A program made the translations under genes and the position numbers. Positions 2,999 through 57,785 of a stretch of DNA of 64,000 bases are shown here, piece after piece; positions within the stretch are counted from its first letter, which is position 1, and each line of letters starts with the position of its first letter. The stretch is from sequence record OQ873415.1; one strand, given 5' to 3'. The notes beneath the pieces were generated by a model, which ran no database searches, was not told where the DNA came from, and was given only the letters and a program-made list of their open reading frames with translations. The stretch is from Escherichia phage PECP20.

Positions 2999-4312
2999 TC
3001 AAATAAAATGGACGTCAAAACGACCACGAGTTGTGCCGACATACAATAGCTGTTTAGCTAATTCTGAATCGGCATAATGGATACACGGTGTATAAACAAA
3101 GGCCGTGTCAACAGACATACCCTGAGCCTTATGGAAGGTTGATACAGGTAGCGCCTTCACCTTAGTGAACATGCGTTTAGCATCCCAGAATTTACTCCAT
3201 GGAGCTTTACCACCTTTATTCCAGAATTTGTATGTTTCTGCGGTCTTAGCCAAAAACAAATTGAATTTATAAAGCTCTTCTTCGGAAGAAATAACCTTTA
3301 TATCCTCGCGGACGTATTCTTCATCATCCCCATATGTTTCTACTGTAAGATTCCAGTATCGTATCATATATTCGCCTGAAACACCACGTGCTTTAACGAA
3401 TGTAGACGTTTCTACAGCATCTCGAATACGAACGAATTGCCCGTTATTGAAAAGCATTTCGGTCATATTTTTGCCATCTAGCTTATACGTCTTGGTAAAC
3501 GGCTCTTGTAGAACAATGACTTCGTCTTTAATAAATGGCTTTTCTGTTTCAAGAAGTTTTCGGCGAATAATTGAATTTAACTTGTCCACCGACTTATTTG
3601 TGAATGCCATCATTCGATTTTCGAAAAGGTCTTCAGGAGTTTTAACGACATTAAAATAGTTCATCATATACGATTTAAGGTCTGTATATCCATGAACACC
3701 GTGCCCATCAACTACTTTATCATAAATCCATTTGCCATTACGAATATCAGTCGCAACATCAATAATTGGTGCATTGCTACGTTTAACTTCTGTAAGGTTG
3801 CATTGCACGAAGTCTTTGTGAGTGAAGAAAGGACTTAGATACGCAGTGGATTCGCCTGGGTCTACCGGACGAATCTGGCATCGGTCACCAATTCCAATTA
3901 CTGTGCACCATTTAGGGATACTAGCTAACATTATTTTAAACAGAGAACGGTCACACATTGATGCTTCATCAAATAACAGTACACGACACAAGGCTAAGTC
4001 GGGAACCTTTTTCTGTTCAAATAATACGTTTTCTTCGTATGTAGTTGGGTTGATTTTAAGAATGCTATGAATAGTCGATGCTTCTTGACCCGCAAGTTTG
4101 CTTAGAACCTTTTTAGCAGCATGTGTAGGGGCTGCTAAAATAATACCTGATTCTCCGGCAGAAATAAGGGCTTCAACGATGAATCTAGTAAGGGTTGTTT
4201 TACCTGTACCAGCAGGCCCGTTAATAGTTACGTGATGTTTCTTTTCTTTAATAGCTTTCATAACAACGTTGAAGGCGTTTTTCTGGCCTTCGGTCAAATC
4301 ATCAAATGTCAT
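2999..4312 (-). CDS. dda: Dda DNA helicase (SF1B)
   Basis: 437 aa; near-colinear with T4 Dda as recalled (MTFDDLTEGQKNAFN..., Walker A GPAGTGKTT). Confidence 0.95.
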   Translation of the reverse strand: MTFDDLTEGQKNAFNVVMKAIKEKKHHVTINGPAGTGKTTLTRFIVEALISAGESGIILAAPTHAAKKVLSKLAGQEASTIHSILKINPTTYEENVLFEQKKVPDLALCRVLLFDEASMCDRSLFKIMLASIPKWCTVIGIGDRCQIRPVDPGESTAYLSPFFTHKDFVQCNLTEVKRSNAPIIDVATDIRNGKWIYDKVVDGHGVHGYTDLKSYMMNYFNVVKTPEDLFENRMMAFTNKSVDKLNSIIRRKLLETEKPFIKDEVIVLQEPFTKTYKLDGKNMTEMLFNNGQFVRIRDAVETSTFVKARGVSGEYMIRYWNLTVETYGDDEEYVREDIKVISSEEELYKFNLFLAKTAETYKFWNKGGKAPWSKFWDAKRMFTKVKALPVSTFHKAQGMSVDTAFVYTPCIHYADSELAKQLLYVGTTRGRFDVHFI

Positions 4313-8012: not shown

Positions 8013-8240
8013 TTAACAACAAATAACTTCTTCAGCATCGTAAGCATTAATTGTTCCTCGAACAAAACGAACACCACCATCATCCCAACGGATTTCGGCA
8101 TTAAATTTGACGTCTTCACCATCCATCATGAATGAGTGTACGACTACGTCATCATAATATCCAAGACCGTATTTCAGCGAAACTTCTTGTGCAATCAAAG
8201 CGCCTAATGTGTTATTAGGTTTAATCCAACGATTTAACAT
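8013..8240 (-). CDS. hypothetical protein (75 aa)
   Basis: ORF; overlaps the 5' part of ORF-track entry 7811..8122 in another frame. Confidence 0.45.
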   Translation of the reverse strand: MLNRWIKPNNTLGALIAQEVSLKYGLGYYDDVVVHSFMMDGEDVKFNAEIRWDDGGVRFVRGTINAYDAEEVICC

Positions 8241-8312
8241 ATTGTTCTCCTCTTGAGTAAGTAAGAATATCTTAACATAGTTTTTAGTGGATGTAAACTC
8301 TAGAAACGAAAA

Positions 8313-8334
8313 AAGGAATCCCGAAGGATTCCTT
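8313..8334 (-). terminator. intrinsic terminator-like UUCG hairpin after soc
   Basis: Minus RNA AAGGAAUCC-UUCG-GGAUUCCUU followed by UUUUCGUUUC; 8 nt after soc stop. Confidence 0.5.
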
Positions 8335-8341
8335 AAATTAT

Positions 8342-15613: not shown

Positions 15614-15955
15614 TTAAAAGAATTTAAATTTTTTCTTGGTCCGTTCATTAAAAGCTTGTTGTACTTGCATTGTAACACATTTTTCAACATGTGGTGCAAG
15701 TTCTGCTTTTCTGTCCTGGTCAAGAACTGCAAAGTCCATTACGATTTTACCATCAACCCAGTCTAGTTTTGTAATATAGACTATATGATGAGAACCATCT
15801 TCAAGTGTAATCAGAATCTCTTGAATGACATTTTCCATTGCTGAACGGATAATTTTAAGAGATTCATTAAACACTCGTTCTTTGCGAATGTCTTCCCCTT
15901 CCGAAGAAGGGGATTCATCAACGATTTCTAGATTTAAATCATCGAGATTATTCAT
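15614..15955 (-). CDS. hypothetical protein in the gene 40 position
   Basis: In-frame ATG (MNNLDD) at 15955 overlaps uvsX stop by 8 nt; track start 16075 would sit inside uvsX. Confidence 0.5.
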   Translation of the reverse strand: MNNLDDLNLEIVDESPSSEGEDIRKERVFNESLKIIRSAMENVIQEILITLEDGSHHIVYITKLDWVDGKIVMDFAVLDQDRKAELAPHVEKCVTMQVQQAFNERTKKKFKFF

Positions 15956-33948: not shown

Positions 33949-33949
33949 A

Positions 33950-34165
33950 TTATCTCATTAAATTAAAATAAAAACGTCCATCCTCTTCAATACAGAACTC
34001 GTACTCAACTGGAGTCCCATTTATCGAAAATGACACGTCATGTGGGTTCAAAGGGTCGATGTCAAAATTAATTTTAAATTCACGACCCAACAGTTTTACC
34101 AAATAAGGGATTGCTTCGTCAAAAGGTTCTTCTAAGTAGTTAGAGATGTCAATTGTCATCCTCAT
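33950..34165 (-). CDS. hypothetical protein
   Basis: Internal ATG start chosen to limit overlap with gene 55 3' end. Confidence 0.45.
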
Positions 34166-47975: not shown

Positions 47976-48051
47976 TTCGTTTCGATAGGTCTATAGTATC
48001 ATATCCTAAAAGCATGTACACTACTTTTTAAAAATATTTTGACCCCCTAAA

Positions 48052-48067
48052 GGGACCCGAAGGTCCC
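48052..48067 (-). terminator. UUCG-tetraloop hairpin downstream of 48145..48333
   Basis: Minus RNA GGGACC-UUCG-GGUCCC with flanking G/C and U tracts. Confidence 0.45.
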
Positions 48068-48144
48068 CACATTTACTTATCGCACTTAGCAACATAATTA
48101 GGCATATCACAGAATACGGAGCGTGTAACTACTCGACCCTTTGA

Positions 48145-50545: not shown

Positions 50546-50681
50546 TTTACCATACTCGTTTCAATAAGATTCACTATGCCGTTTACCATGTTATAAGTAA
50601 ACATCGGATAATTGTATTGTACTACAACATAAGCGATAAGCAAAAGTTTCATTTTGTTCTCCGTTCGTTTTGGTAGGACTA

Positions 50682-50710
50682 CTATAACATAGTCCTACCA
50701 AGATGTAAAC
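50682..50710 (-). promoter_or_regulatory. early-type promoter with -10 inside a 9-bp-arm palindrome
   Basis: GTTTAC-N17-TTATAG; plus-strand ggtaggact-N10-agtcctacc. Confidence 0.35.
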
Positions 50711-55377: not shown

Positions 55378-55591
55378 AAGGAATTTCCTCATCGGTGGCA
55401 AGGTCATATTCGACCAATTGGATAGGCTCATTAATACCATATCCACGTACAGTGATATCAGTTGCCGGATAGTTTCCAGTAATATCACCCATTCTAAATG
55501 CTTCAATGAATGATTGCTCGCCTGAGCAACTAAACCAGGCGGCAAAACATTTTAAAACATCTTCAGACCCTTCTATAATCAATTTAGCCAT
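55367..55591 (-). CDS. hypothetical acidic protein (74 aa)
   Basis: ORF. Confidence 0.5.
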   Translation of the reverse strand: MAKLIIEGSEDVLKCFAAWFSCSGEQSFIEAFRMGDITGNYPATDITVRGYGINEPIQLVEYDLATDEEIPYVD

Positions 55592-55953
55592 TATAGACTC
55601 TCAGTAAAGGTACGAGCGATAACGTCACGCTGCTGTTCCGGAGTCAGAGAGTTAAAGCGAACTGCATAACCGGATACACGGATGGTCAGCTGCGGATATT
55701 TTTCCGGATGCTTAACTGCATCTTCCAGAGTTTCACGACGCAGAACATTAACGTTCAGGTGTTGACCACCTTCAATTTTAACTTTAGGTTGATGTTCAAT
55801 TTCAATTTCGCGGGCATGTAAACCGTAGAAAATTTCCGGGTCTACAATAGCGTCTTCTTTAAAAGTCTTAGAGACAATAATCCGGGCTTGAGTACCGTCT
55901 TCAAAATAAATAGTGCCTTTGTGTGTGCCTTCAAGAATTTGATATGCTTTCAT
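55591..55953 (-). CDS. autonomous glycyl radical cofactor (GrcA/YfiD-like)
   Basis: 120 aa; C-terminal ~60 aa ([60 protein letters not shown]) match E. coli GrcA as recalled, including the RVSGY glycyl radical loop. Confidence 0.9.
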
Positions 55954-55959
55954 ATAACC

Positions 55960-56268
55960 TCAATTAGAAAATAAATTTATCCAAGTTTTTTCTTTAATCA
56001 AAAATGGGTCGGAATTAAACGCCATTAAACTTTGAGTGATTAATCCCTTAAATGGCCCATCAATAAATTCCATTTTGAAATGCGGAATACTAGTCATCAA
56101 CCGTGCATTAGGAGCAGTACAAAGAACCTGCTGCCCTGCGAACGGACCTTTAGTCAAACGGTATCGTTTAGGTTTAAAATGGTAAATCTCGTAATTTTCT
56201 ACAAGAGCCCTTTTATTGCATACTGGGCTGTTATAACAATACTCAAAAACTTCAATAGTGGTCATCAT
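55960..56268 (-). CDS. hypothetical protein (102 aa)
   Basis: ORF. Confidence 0.55.
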   Translation of the reverse strand: MMTTIEVFEYCYNSPVCNKRALVENYEIYHFKPKRYRLTKGPFAGQQVLCTAPNARLMTSIPHFKMEFIDGPFKGLITQSLMAFNSDPFLIKEKTWINLFSN

Positions 56269-56804
56269 TGCATTCCAATCACAAAAAATTGAGGACGAGC
56301 ATTACCGCCGATGCAATATTTGCTTTTGCAACAGTGTTGGACTGTTTTAATATGTACATTGTAAATCTTATCCATATCAGGAGCTTTAATAGGCTCGTCA
56401 ATTATATACAGAATACGAGAAAGCGTTAATCCACGGAATTTAGAACCTTCATTGCCAATAAAACTACGAACAGAATCAGTAAATAAACGGAATCGAATAT
56501 CGTCGCTAGAATAACGAGAAAATTCTTTTTTAATGTTGCCAGCAGAAATTTTAGAATAAGCTGAAGTATTAGAAAGAACAATAACTGTTCCACCATCATA
56601 CAGCCAATTAACAGCAAAATTAGTTACTGCGGTCGATTTACCTGATTGTCGGCCGCCGTCTAAACGAAGTGTACAGTACTGCTTGAGTACGTCTTCAAAC
56701 GGTGGGATATAACCGTTCTTACAAATTTCTTCTACTCTAGCATCAGAATGGTGTGTAAAAGCATTCATCAGGGATAGATAAGGTCCAGTTAAAAATGTTC
56801 TCAT
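56265..56804 (-). CDS. P-loop NTPase (179 aa)
   Basis: Walker A GGRQSGKST and Walker B YIIDEP. Confidence 0.65.
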   Translation of the reverse strand: MRTFLTGPYLSLMNAFTHHSDARVEEICKNGYIPPFEDVLKQYCTLRLDGGRQSGKSTAVTNFAVNWLYDGGTVIVLSNTSAYSKISAGNIKKEFSRYSSDDIRFRLFTDSVRSFIGNEGSKFRGLTLSRILYIIDEPIKAPDMDKIYNVHIKTVQHCCKSKYCIGGNARPQFFVIGMQ

Positions 56805-56976
56805 TTAGTTTCTCTTAAGGTTGGGGCCATTCCATGGCACATGTTAGGTCCTTCGACTCGCTATGTAAACCCATTACCGCATTGCGCTCGACCTTATTAC
56901 AGGTTGGAAAAGGTACATCACTCAGAGGACTCGACGTTCATGAGGAGAGGTTGCGTTTCCCTTTATTAGGCAAGAA

Positions 56977-57306
56977 TTATACTCTAGGCTTTTGAGCTTG
57001 TTTGGTATTGGATTCCCATGTGGCTTTGGTAATTTTGTTAGCGGCATAACCAAAGGCATTAGATAGAACACCTTTAGAGTTGAATACATCCAATCCAATA
57101 AGTACACCGGCTGTGTTAAATTTAGGAGCAAAGTACGCATTAGTTTTAGAAAGAGCTTTTTTCAATTCAGGGTCTTGAACCAAGTCATCAAAAACGCCTT
57201 TACTATTTACTTTATATGTTACTTTGGGATTTTTACTTTCTTCGATAGCAGCTTTCTGTTCCGCAGATAATGTAACTTCAGTGATAAACTCTTGATATGT
57301 TTTCAT
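56977..57306 (-). CDS. capsid internal protein with capsid targeting sequence
   Basis: ATG at 57306 gives N-terminus MKTYQEFITE, the T4 internal-protein targeting consensus; Lys/Ala-rich body. Confidence 0.7.
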   Translation of the reverse strand: MKTYQEFITEVTLSAEQKAAIEESKNPKVTYKVNSKGVFDDLVQDPELKKALSKTNAYFAPKFNTAGVLIGLDVFNSKGVLSNAFGYAANKITKATWESNTKQAQKPRV

Positions 57307-57313
57307 TTTTTCC

Positions 57314-57727
57314 TTAGTAAATTGATTTACCATAGTATTTGTACCAAGTCGGACGTTGAGCAATTTTTTCATCTAAGCGTGCTTGACTTATCGCAATGGA
57401 CACTTCGGACGGGACATAATTATTACGAAATTCGGCAGGAATGTCGGAAATATCCTGGACTGTCGTGTCCTTGATTTTGAAACCACGTTTCAAACATTCA
57501 GCGATTAGCTCGATTTGTCGTAAACGTAAAAATTCAAGTTTGTCGTAAAAGAATGTTACGTGACCTGTGCCTAAGATAAATGTTGGAGAGATTTTAAAAT
57601 CCTTTACACGTTTACCGTTTTGAACATGTTTACGGACTGCACCAAATACGCGTGGTAATTCACGATACTCAGCCATAAGATGTTGGTCGGACAGTTCAGA
57701 AACAAGTGTTAAATTGATACGAGTCAT
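57314..57727 (-). CDS. denV: endonuclease V (pyrimidine dimer DNA glycosylase)
   Basis: Near-identical to T4 DenV as recalled ([12 protein letters not shown]...); start at ATG 57727. Confidence 0.95.
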
Positions 57728-57785
57728 AATTTCCTCCAAGTAGTTGATGAATGTATAGTATCAAAACCCTTGGAGGAAGTAAACA

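Follow-up and report, generated by a model that had tools for sequence, protein, structure and literature searches.

Location and composition of the gap upstream of vs.8

The DNA analysed here, referred to as the window, is a stretch of 64,000 nucleotides from Escherichia phage PECP20 (OQ873415.1), a genome of the Mosigvirus type, i.e. an RB69-like T4-type phage, with Escherichia phage LF82-41 as the best match (99.5% identity over 1.3 kb). The subject of this study is a gap of 172 bp at 56805-56976, located between the start codon of vs.8 (56804) and the stop of an upstream internal-protein-like open reading frame (ORF; 56977). All genes of this locus lie on the minus strand, in the order nudE, e (lysozyme), an internal-protein gene, denV, the internal-protein-like ORF, the gap, vs.8, vs.7 and vs.6. 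The comparison with related phages presented below shows that the gap holds a conserved, strand-specific and pseudoknotted RNA structure of approximately 145 nt (56823-56967), which is encoded on the minus strand and thus in sense orientation to all neighbouring genes. On this comparative basis, it is very likely that the gap encodes a genuine functional structured RNA.

The gap had been singled out in an original prediction, made from the sequence alone, as unusually long, rich in guanine and cytosine (GC), free of ORFs and tRNAs and possibly coding for a small structured RNA or holding regulatory sites. The GC content amounts to 0.465 for the gap and 0.49 for the central 145-nt element, compared to 0.372 for the whole window, and is the highest among all gaps of at least 110 bp, the others ranging from 0.26 to 0.39 according to a crude ORF-based gene call. 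Based on the same gene call, the gap clearly exceeds the median gap length of 56 bp, but since about a dozen other gaps in the window measure 117-219 bp, a length of 172 bp alone is not unusual. The other gaps of 160-220 bp (8123-8341, 33949-34148, 15767-15947, 47976-48144 and 50546-50709) showed a GC content of 0.33-0.39 and no Rfam match. The absence of ORFs was confirmed, since stops occur in all three minus-strand frames (2, 4 and 6) and the two plus-strand ORFs of 53 and 42 aa are interrupted by single-base indels in relatives. The same holds true for the tRNAs, as neither a tRNA nor a transfer-messenger RNA was found by ARAGORN in the whole window. A scan with Rfam 15 (4227 models), which had been proposed as a check, matched no family, neither in the window at the gathering threshold nor at 56700-57100 at E<=10, where only noise was reported.

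Conservation among T4-like phages

Conservation in related phages had been proposed as a further check, and here the outcome was positive: the gap matched 938 phage records in blastn. These include Mosigvirus, Tequatrovirus (T4, T2, RB32), Jiaodavirus/Slopekvirus-type Klebsiella phages, Moonvirus, Winklervirus and Karamvirus-type Enterobacter phages as well as Salmonella, Yersinia, Citrobacter and Erwinia phages. Between T4-like genera, the element showed 80-88% identity to the window, compared to 64-67% for the adjoining vs.8 coding sequence and 34-48% for the Vs.8 protein. In every T4-like locus examined vs.8 is the next conserved gene, and it begins 63-119 nt past the core of the element in all T4-like genera. 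The upstream neighbour of the element varies among these phages, being either denV or one of different internal-protein genes. None of the phage records inspected annotates the RNA element, and full-text literature searches yielded no description of it. The bulk list of 8,495 unnamed candidate RNA structures from IMG/VR (Fremin et al. 2023, PMC10690425) may include part of the element.

In T4 itself (L067, NC_000866; L numbers denote loci throughout), the element follows directly after the denV stop and lies inside the annotated N-terminus of vs.8, at 3294-3442 of the locus, corresponding to 64,793-64,941 of the record. The annotated T4 vs.8 (NP_049732, 219 aa) starts at an ATG within the RNA element and reads through it. 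The Vs.8 homologues all share a start about 40 codons later, with the pattern M-K/R-(T/Y/F)-(F/L)-LT (MRTFLTG... or MKYLTP...). The annotated N-terminus of T4 vs.8 is probably an annotation artefact that hides the element.

This annotation is also the starting point for a protein-coding explanation, according to which the conserved sequence would be either a short separate ORF or part of an N-terminally extended vs.8. Such an explanation could further refer to the hypothetical proteins annotated at this position in some records and to a conserved AUG in a good Shine-Dalgarno context. It is nevertheless most improbable, as all three sense frames of the window gap contain stops and all Vs.8 homologues start downstream of the element. 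Furthermore, relatives differ by single-base indels, which means that no conserved reading frame is possible in the element, the frame of the AUG relative to vs.8 is variable, and the substitutions are compensatory in helices instead of codon-periodic.

Covariation of the proposed fold

The proposed fold comprises a 5' stem domain (H1, H2 and H3), a helix-closed three-way junction (P4, Ha and Hb), a long-range pseudoknot and two 3' hairpins (P5 and P6). Since RNAalifold gave a poor structure on the raw MAFFT alignment mixing long and short forms, the helices were first proposed by eye from compensatory differences and then counted on alignments. Alignment A3 comprises 24 distinct long-form T4-like sequences, and as a control the 3' partners were shifted by 1-3 columns (slid control). 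For the nested structure, 93% of the cells were paired on A3 compared to 17-50% in the slid control, and five pairs changed on both sides, which was reached by 6 of 500 shuffles. With the pseudoknot included (37 pairs), 88.8% of the cells were paired compared to at most 46% in the slid control, and eight pairs with double changes as well as 38 compensated cells were counted, which none of 500 shuffles reached.

Alignment A8 consists of 70 matches from T4-like and other phages aligned by R2, a full-length covariance model that contains the nested structure only, the pseudoknot having been left out. The window element scored 159 bits with R2 (E 3e-46, E-values being rough). On A8, where the nested helices are fitted to the model, 24 of the 37 pairs were compensatory, and the covariation score of 0.246 compares to 0.076 for shuffled and at most 0.057 for slid alignments, the observed value being reached by none of 500 shuffles. 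The pseudoknot, although absent from R2, still covaries on A8, with a central pair of C-G in 26, U-A in 12, A-U in 4 and G-C in 4 cases. Among 44 diverse core sequences, the pair of P4 that closes the junction was A-U in 22, U-A in 10, C-G in 6, U-G in 5 and G-C in 1, with zero mismatches. Eighteen G-U cells on A3 would turn into A-C if the other strand were read, which ties the fold to the minus strand.

The strong minus-strand covariation including the pseudoknot, together with a conservation above that of the flanking gene, supports the small structured RNA that had been suggested for the gap. The strand, the pseudoknot, the extent of about 145 nt, which is nearly the whole gap, and the existence of a family beyond T4-like phages were out of reach of the original prediction.

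Anatomy of the element

All positions in this section refer to the minus strand. The conserved sequence opens with CUAAUAAAGG at 56969, followed by the 5' strand of H1 (AAAGG, 56960-56964), which pairs with CCUUU at 56909-56913. On the 70-sequence alignment all five pairs of H1 covary, one of them being G-C in 34, C-G in 16 and A-U in 9 cases; as examples, KPV15 shows AAAGC/GCUUU and T4-type phages show GGGAA/UUCCC. An internal loop within H1 (GGAAACGCAACCUCUCC) carries both the 5' strand of the pseudoknot and an invariant CU-rich stretch. The pseudoknot strand CGC (56953-56955, in the internal loop GGAAACGCAACC) pairs with GCG at 56859-56861, which is part of CAUAGCGAG and lies inside the P5 loop, 3' of P4. 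On A3 the central pair of the pseudoknot was C-G in 16, A-U in 4, G-C in 3 and U-G in 1 sequence without any mismatch, and relatives showed the variants ACAC/GUGU, CGCCG/CGGUG, CCGA/UCGG, ACCA/UGGU, CACAC/GUGUG, CUCGA/UCGAG, CCUGA/UCAGG, CCAG/UUGG and ACCG/CGGU. An alternative pseudoknot, AUGUA/UACAU, was only 81% paired and was replaced by this pairing between internal loop and tail. The CU-rich stretch CCUCUCC (56944-56950) is invariant in alignments A2 and A3 and resembles an anti-Shine-Dalgarno sequence; it is confined to long-form T4-like elements and missing in T4-type short forms.

The helix H2 (CUCA/UGAG) encloses the hairpin H3 (GAAC-loop-GUCC) at 56921-56944. H2 is shortened by a matched deletion on both strands to CUA/UAG in L025, L050 and L113. 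Loop and stem of H3 are variable (GAAC-AUU-GUUC), and in Tequatrovirus H3 is deleted, leaving CCUCA-loop-UGAGG. The original prediction had also pointed to two inverted repeats in the gap. While gccattccatggc (56826-56838) turned out to be a real hairpin, P6, gaggactcgacg is part of H2/H3 and not a clean inverted repeat.

The three-way junction is closed by P4, whose 5' strand UCCA (56905-56908) pairs with UGGG (56870-56873), and three of its four pairs covary within T4-like phages (A3). The hairpin Ha (ACCU-GUAAUA-AGGU, 56891-56904) was 100% paired and carries a GNRA-like hexaloop GUAAnA; an A-U to G-C change was observed in L163 and L171, and the loop occurs as GUAGAA, GUGAAA and GCAAAA in variants. 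It is followed by CnA and the short hairpin Hb (GC-N5-6-GC) at 56879-56890, in which the GC/GC pairs are essentially invariant, so that covariation is minimal, and the loop varies in sequence and length. The invariant GGUAA (56874-56878) then leads into the 3' strand of P4, both together covering 56870-56878. Altogether, some 30 nucleotides of the junction hardly vary, and its core reads A-CCUGUAAnAAGGUCnAGC-N5-6-GCGGUAA. R1, a covariance model built for the core domain, matched 56865-56913 with 66.8 bits (E 1e-19) as a single copy in the window, the next match reaching 11 bits.

After P4, the UUUAC within GTTTAC (56870-56865) overlaps the 5' side of P5 (ACAU/AUGU, 56839-56866). Besides the 3' strand of the pseudoknot, the P5 loop contains an A(A/U)GGA motif (56848-56853, AAGGA in the window). 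P5 was 97% paired but almost invariant on A3, and it covaries on the model-fitted A8. The hairpin P6 (GCCA-UGGAA-UGGC, 56826-56838), with GGA in its loop, lies directly upstream of the ribosome-binding site of vs.8; it was 95% paired, with a compensatory GGCA/UGCC in L014. Both 3' hairpins are confined to T4-type phages and reach up to the ribosome-binding site and the AUG (56804) of vs.8.

Promoter-like signals in the gap

A scan of the gap revealed no convincing promoter and no terminator-like site. The GTTTAC hexamer, which the original prediction had listed among its features, is part of a promoter-like match (TTTACA-17-TAACAT, 9/12). Since four such sites were found compared to 4.1 expected in shuffles, the match does not exceed chance; the hexamer is conserved as one piece of the RNA. 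A TATAAT at 56976-56981 (minus strand) overlaps the stop codon of the upstream gene; it lacks a good -35 box, was not flagged by the scan and occurs only in Mosigvirus-type sequences. It is a possible -10 box, from which transcription would begin at the 5' edge of the element. A MotA-box-like aaGCTCA was noticed 11 nt upstream of the TATAAT (56976-57000, minus strand), and both together may constitute a candidate middle-mode promoter firing at the 5' edge of the RNA.

Based on these signals, the conservation could also be attributed to the DNA itself, either as a promoter with GTTTAC as -35 box or TATAAT at 56976-56981, or as a recombination anchor flanking internal-protein cassettes, in both cases without any RNA function. 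T4 early promoters have GTTTAC-like -35 boxes, the gap borders a region in which the upstream genes differ between phages, and conserved flanks reportedly mediate cassette shuffling in T4-type genomes. Nonetheless, this explanation is very unlikely. The promoter-like matches are at chance, the -10 box linked to GTTTAC is poor and the TATAAT is limited to Mosigvirus-type sequences, while the compensatory changes, the G-U pairs on one strand and the covarying pseudoknot indicate selection on RNA and not on duplex DNA. In addition, the core is present in unrelated phages without internal-protein genes. A cassette of the PeSL (promoter-early stem-loop) type, known from hyperplastic regions of T4-type genomes and said to consist of an early promoter and a stem-loop terminator of about 50 bp, was rejected as an identity for the element, since the promoter sites are at chance, a terminator is missing and the element of about 145 nt has another architecture.

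Members of the family outside T4-like phages

The exact pattern CCTGTAANAAGGTCNAGC was found in 61 IMG/VR loci, and those that also contain GC-GGUAA and the closing helix comprise 32 distinct T4-like and 17 other sequences, to which relaxed patterns added variants. In 185,579 bacterial and archaeal genomes the 16-base pattern gave 93 matches, which is below the chance expectation, and none of these has the extended motif. The extended pattern of 23 bases occurred in 31 metagenome contigs, all 31 of which are family members. As far as sampled, the sequence searches show a family restricted to virulent-type phage genomes. The members outside T4-like phages belong to rV5-like Vequintavirinae, KpCHEMY26-like Klebsiella phages and about ten further lineages known from uncultivated contigs only. 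At homologous positions they carry the pseudoknots ACCG/CGGU, CCAA/UUGG, CGGA/UCCG, GCCUA/UAGGU, CUCCGG/CCGGAG and GCCAA/UUGGU. The features that define the family, namely a helix-closed three-way junction core (R1) and a pseudoknot between the loop of the 5' domain and the tail of P4, are both present in the window element, here as CGC/GCG. A Streptococcus-phage-like group (CCUGUAAnAAGG...GCGGUAA followed by a terminator; L158-L186) reached only 18 bits with R1 and was excluded, as was L085.

Neither vs.8 nor its neighbours were found in the non-T4 loci by tblastn. Genes for tRNAs are located on the same strand within 1 kb of the element in about 8 of 14 non-T4 lineages. In L178 the element lies between two tRNAs, in L173 it follows four tRNAs, and in L048 it is located about 48 nt past the last tRNA of the operon and is followed by a terminator-like hairpin, which was seen by eye and not flagged by the scan. 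Of about 9 lineages with sufficient sequence, 6 encode the large terminase subunit (TerL; Pfam Terminase_6N/6C or Terminase_3) on the same strand, 0.9-3.5 kb downstream of the element, and ORFs resembling the small terminase subunit (TerS) lie in between. The locus L054 represents a complete unit of promoter-like site, RNA and a terminator with a 13-bp stem, and the rV5-like L053 has an 11/12 sigma-70 promoter before the RNA and a second promoter after it. Promoters and terminators of its own as well as the positions in tRNA operons point to an RNA functioning in its own right. Tandem copies were observed in L032 (5050-5306), L128, L129 (8965-9221) and L127 (828-962), i.e. in some Winklervirus-like T4-type phages and one unrelated lineage. 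With Rfam, nothing overlapping the motif was found in 25 non-T4 loci, and focused scans of L054 and L053 at E<=10 were null as well. The element is a member of a new, widespread and uncurated family within a known kind, the phage-encoded structured RNAs of unknown function.

These surroundings raise the question of catalysis: as a new RNA that cleaves itself, or is catalytic in some other way, the element could process phage transcripts that are polycistronic or contain tRNAs. Its compact shape, a pseudoknotted three-way junction in which many unpaired nucleotides are invariant, is what small ribozymes typically show, and tandem copies exist. Genes for tRNAs adjoin the element in about 8 of 14 non-T4 lineages, and in T4-like phages it lies between cistrons. 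Moreover, phage tRNA regions are known to hold hammerhead ribozymes and ribozymes resembling that of hepatitis delta virus (HDV). However, no ribozyme family of Rfam 15 was matched, several family members are followed by intrinsic terminators and a cleavage site cannot be inferred, which makes a ribozyme unlikely on present sequence data.

A riboswitch aptamer for a small molecule is regarded as just as unlikely as a ribozyme. In this case P5/P6 in T4-like phages, or the downstream terminator in other phages, would serve as expression platform. The aptamer-like conservation, the pseudoknot, the position directly upstream of an ORF in T4-like phages and the order of element, terminator and same-strand ORF in L054, L048 and L030 would fit such a function, and tandem arrangements are known for some riboswitches. 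On the other hand, the downstream genes (vs.8, an internal-protein gene, TerS-like ORFs, small ORFs of unknown function and tRNAs) share no function, and rV5-like phages have a second strong promoter after the RNA. The terminators are located 60-80 nt past the core without evident alternative pairing, and no known class is matched in Rfam.

Some further features of the non-T4 loci were noticed. According to Rfam, group I introns interrupt the TerL genes that follow the RNA in L053 (1979-3600), L030 (6510-7894), L178 (2928-4333) and L104 (11469-13079). The TerL of L053 additionally has an intein-like insert in its Walker A motif, and HNH-type endonuclease ORFs are frequent near such TerL genes. 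In KpCHEMY26-like phages (L011, L018, L035, L038, L045 and L074) the RNA belongs to a set of several units, each about 150 nt long and bracketed by ACAACAGGUAAGAGCAUU ... AGUGCUCUUUCCGUUGUG. These repeats can form long closing stems and may mark a candidate array, upstream of tRNA genes, in which small RNAs carry processing stems.

Possible function as a vs.8 leader

Altogether, the data are best explained by a folded, partner-binding RNA module, which in the present phage would form the leader of vs.8; we assign a probability of roughly 0.6 to this reading. The RNA would act via its fold as a recognition module, with the invariant junction contacting a putative conserved partner, either a protein or a small ligand. 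Since no convincing promoter or terminator of its own was found in the window, the RNA would be transcribed as part of the message from the internal-protein gene to vs.8. The most likely consequence would be a local effect on the translation of vs.8 or on the processing or stability of its mRNA, because the 3' hairpins sit on the vs.8 start region. The conservation above that of neighbouring genes, the architecture resembling ribozymes and riboswitches and the recurrence beside tRNA and packaging genes in unrelated virulent phages make a biochemical role in binding or catalysis likely, as opposed to a trivial hairpin.

In T4-like phages the element could also be purely cis-acting, i.e. a translational operator or leader whose fold gates only the start of vs.8, or of a small upstream open reading frame (uORF), and has no autonomous role. 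Possible routes would be, for instance, autoregulation by Vs.8, binding of a host factor such as CsrA to the two hairpins with GGA in the loop or coupling to the translation of the upstream gene. The lack of a promoter and terminator of its own in the window, the short and constant spacing between element and vs.8 start in every T4-like genus and the T4-like-specific P5/P6 abutting the ribosome-binding site are in line with such an operator, and the CU-rich CCUCUCC could sequester purine-rich ribosome-binding sites. With regard to CsrA, T4-like elements carry an invariant GGA in both the P5 and the P6 loop, and the Shine-Dalgarno sequence of vs.8, AAGAGA in the window, contains no GGA. One relative carries AUACAUGGAUGA, which is close to RUACARGGAUGU, the consensus derived for CsrA by SELEX.

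The possible uORF comprises 13 codons (MCHGMAPTLRETK, 56801-56842, minus strand), with its AUG in P5/P6 and a UGA overlapping the vs.8 AUG (AUGA). Both this AUG and the AAGGA 7 nt upstream are conserved, which would also suit a cis-acting operator. The frame relative to vs.8, however, is not conserved. Among 25 relatives, 10 were in frame 0 (5 of them as read-through fusions), 8 showed AUGA overlaps and 7 early stops; in the same set, 4 long out-of-frame overlaps were counted and 1 uORF was split from vs.8 by the Jiaodavirus insert. Due to this scatter, the uORF is probably incidental, and translational coupling was rejected.

Further observations do not fit an operator that serves vs.8 alone. 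In unrelated phages, where vs.8 was not found, the core and the pseudoknot stand alone with promoter and terminator or between tRNAs, and about 30 invariant junction nucleotides exceed the needs of a simple occluding hairpin. In Jiaodavirus (L002, L016, L023, L034, e.g. KPV15), the element is separated from vs.8 by an inserted internal-protein gene, and P6 and the ribosome-binding site are duplicated ahead of vs.8. This duplication suggests that P6 served as recombination joint for the insertion of the cassette. Taken together, a purely cis-acting operator is possible but doubtful, and a partner-binding module forming the vs.8 leader is preferred.

Several points weigh against this preferred reading. 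The Jiaodavirus arrangement concerns it as well, since there the full element precedes an internal-protein gene and not vs.8. The adjacency to vs.8 may be plain synteny, and a relationship of Vs.8 to terminases is no more than a hint; it would be the counterpart of the TerL neighbourhood seen in other phages. Recombination between phages could make the element, which borders a hyperplastic region, look more conserved than it is. Within T4-like phages, H2, H3, Ha, Hb and P5 hardly vary and therefore show conservation, not covariation, and on A8 the nested helices are fitted to the model, with rough E-values. Finally, the single-sequence minimum free energy of the gap was not better than that of shuffles on either strand (z = +1.6 and +0.7). 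With the tRNA scan, the Rfam scan and the single-sequence energy all null, the tests proposed at first would on their own make the gap look negative, and the case for more than chance is comparative and not thermodynamic.

A more far-reaching possibility, which appears rather unlikely, would be a new functional class of phage RNA, represented in T4-type phages by the element. It would then possibly be a self-cleaving ribozyme of a new type, or a cofactor RNA that binds a ligand or a protein and works with tRNA operons or terminase-type ATPases in unrelated tailed phages; as a cofactor RNA, it would imply an activity like that of the phi29 packaging RNA (pRNA) or of a riboswitch that went unnoticed in phage T4 itself. 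Independent of the function, few genomes have been studied as intensively as those of T4 and RB69, and still a pseudoknotted RNA of about 145 nt is unannotated in the phage records inspected. The element is testable in a genetically tractable system (T4 or RB69), and its description would bring RNA databases a well-supported family, mend a gene model of T4 and open a way to study the P-loop ATPase Vs.8.

Comparison with known RNAs

Among the RNAs of T4, rnaC and rnaD (species 1 and 2) are likewise structured, of about 120-140 nt and without known function. They are located in the tRNA operon, similar to the non-T4 family members inside or at the end of tRNA operons, which are sometimes followed by a terminator. 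In contrast, the element of T4-like phages is located 6-7 kb from the tRNA cluster, the window contains no tRNA, and there is no similarity in sequence or structure to rnaC or rnaD. An identity was rejected, since on the T4 locus L067, which contains both RNAs, R2 matched only 3319-3442 beside vs.8, and R1 likewise matched only there.

The orphan motifs drum, skipping-rope, DUF3800-I, FuFi-1, ROOL and GOLLD, whose function is unknown (Weinberg et al. 2017, PMC5737381), share with the present family many invariant positions, the presence of pseudoknots or multi-stem junctions, 3' terminators in many cases and the proximity to tRNAs and phage DNA. In these respects the element resembles them and differs from ordinary riboswitches of 5' untranslated regions. 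None of their Rfam models matched the element at E<=10, the element is far smaller than ROOL and GOLLD, and unlike these motifs the present family was found only in contigs of the virulent-phage type.

The pRNA of phi29 is likewise phage-specific, comprises about 120-170 nt and contains a three-way junction, and members of the present family are located shortly upstream of TerS and TerL or, in T4-like phages, upstream of a weakly TerL-like P-loop ATPase. A pRNA of the phi29 type was nevertheless rejected, because no Rfam pRNA model matched and the gene neighbourhood is the sole link. T4 packaging has been reconstituted in vitro without RNA.

Similar to the leader of T4 gene 32 and the operators of gp43 and RegA, the element is structured, located just 5' of the ribosome-binding site of an early or middle mRNA and conserved across T4-like genera, and it could, like them, act by protein binding. 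While those operators are short (20-40 nt) and specific for their genes, the element comprises about 145 nt with a three-way junction and a long-range pseudoknot, and its core occurs in other phages independently of vs.8.

The hairpin Ha (CCU-GUAAnA-AGG) recalls by inspection boxB of lambda (GCCCU-GAAAA-AGGGC), a GNRA-like loop with a variable and probably extruded base, although the boxB loop has five bases and the Ha loop six. A position at the head of operons with tRNAs and terminase or late genes, as for lambda nut or HK022 put, would suit antitermination. A lambda-type nut site was rejected, since no boxA-like sequence (CGCUCUUUA-like) occurs in the 172 nt. T4-like and rV5-like phages are not known to encode an N-like protein.

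Further resemblances were dropped. The hammerhead ribozyme was rejected because the element has CUGAGUGA and not CUGANGA and no Rfam match, and no Rfam match was obtained for twister, twister-sister, pistol, hatchet and HDV-like ribozymes. For the thiamine pyrophosphate riboswitch, suggested by the likeness to CUGAG...ACCUG, RF00059 was not reported at E<=10 and the P4/P5 pyrophosphate-sensor helix is missing. The likenesses to CR-II of RNase P ('GUGCGGUAA' with a P4-like pairing), the 530 loop of 16S rRNA ('GCGGUAAU'), the Alu domain of the signal recognition particle ('CCUGUAAU'), the anticodon loop of tRNA-Tyr ('CUGUAA') and the TwoAYGGAY motif are superficial and were dropped by inspection or for lack of an Rfam match.

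Neighbouring genes

The downstream gene vs.8 (56265-56804, minus strand) encodes a small P-loop ATPase of the ASCE type with the Walker A motif GGRQSGKS. Vs.8 matched PHROG 1488 (unknown function) and, weakly, a PHROG family annotated as terminase large subunit (E 4.5e-5); no match was found in Pfam. Compared to the N-terminal domains of TerL from non-T4 loci, hhalign gave a probability of 42% around the Walker A motif. The AlphaFold2 model of Vs.8 showed a RecA-like ASCE fold, with a predicted local distance difference test score of 83 and a predicted template modelling score of 0.83. In a Foldseek search with this model, helicases ranked first and the ATPase domain of the P74-26 TerL appeared at rank 7 (E 6e-3), so that the assignment to the small P-loop ATPases agrees with the predicted structure.

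On the other side of the gap, the upstream ORF of 131 aa (56977-57372, minus strand) overlaps denV (57314-57739, minus strand) by 59 nt. The matches of this ORF to internal-head-protein PHROGs begin only at residue 23 (MKTYQEFITE, an N-terminus of the capsid-targeting type), which indicates that the real upstream gene is probably shorter and comprises 56977-57306 (109 aa). Further downstream, vs.6 (55591-55953, minus strand) encodes an autonomous glycyl-radical cofactor of the GrcA/Y06I type.

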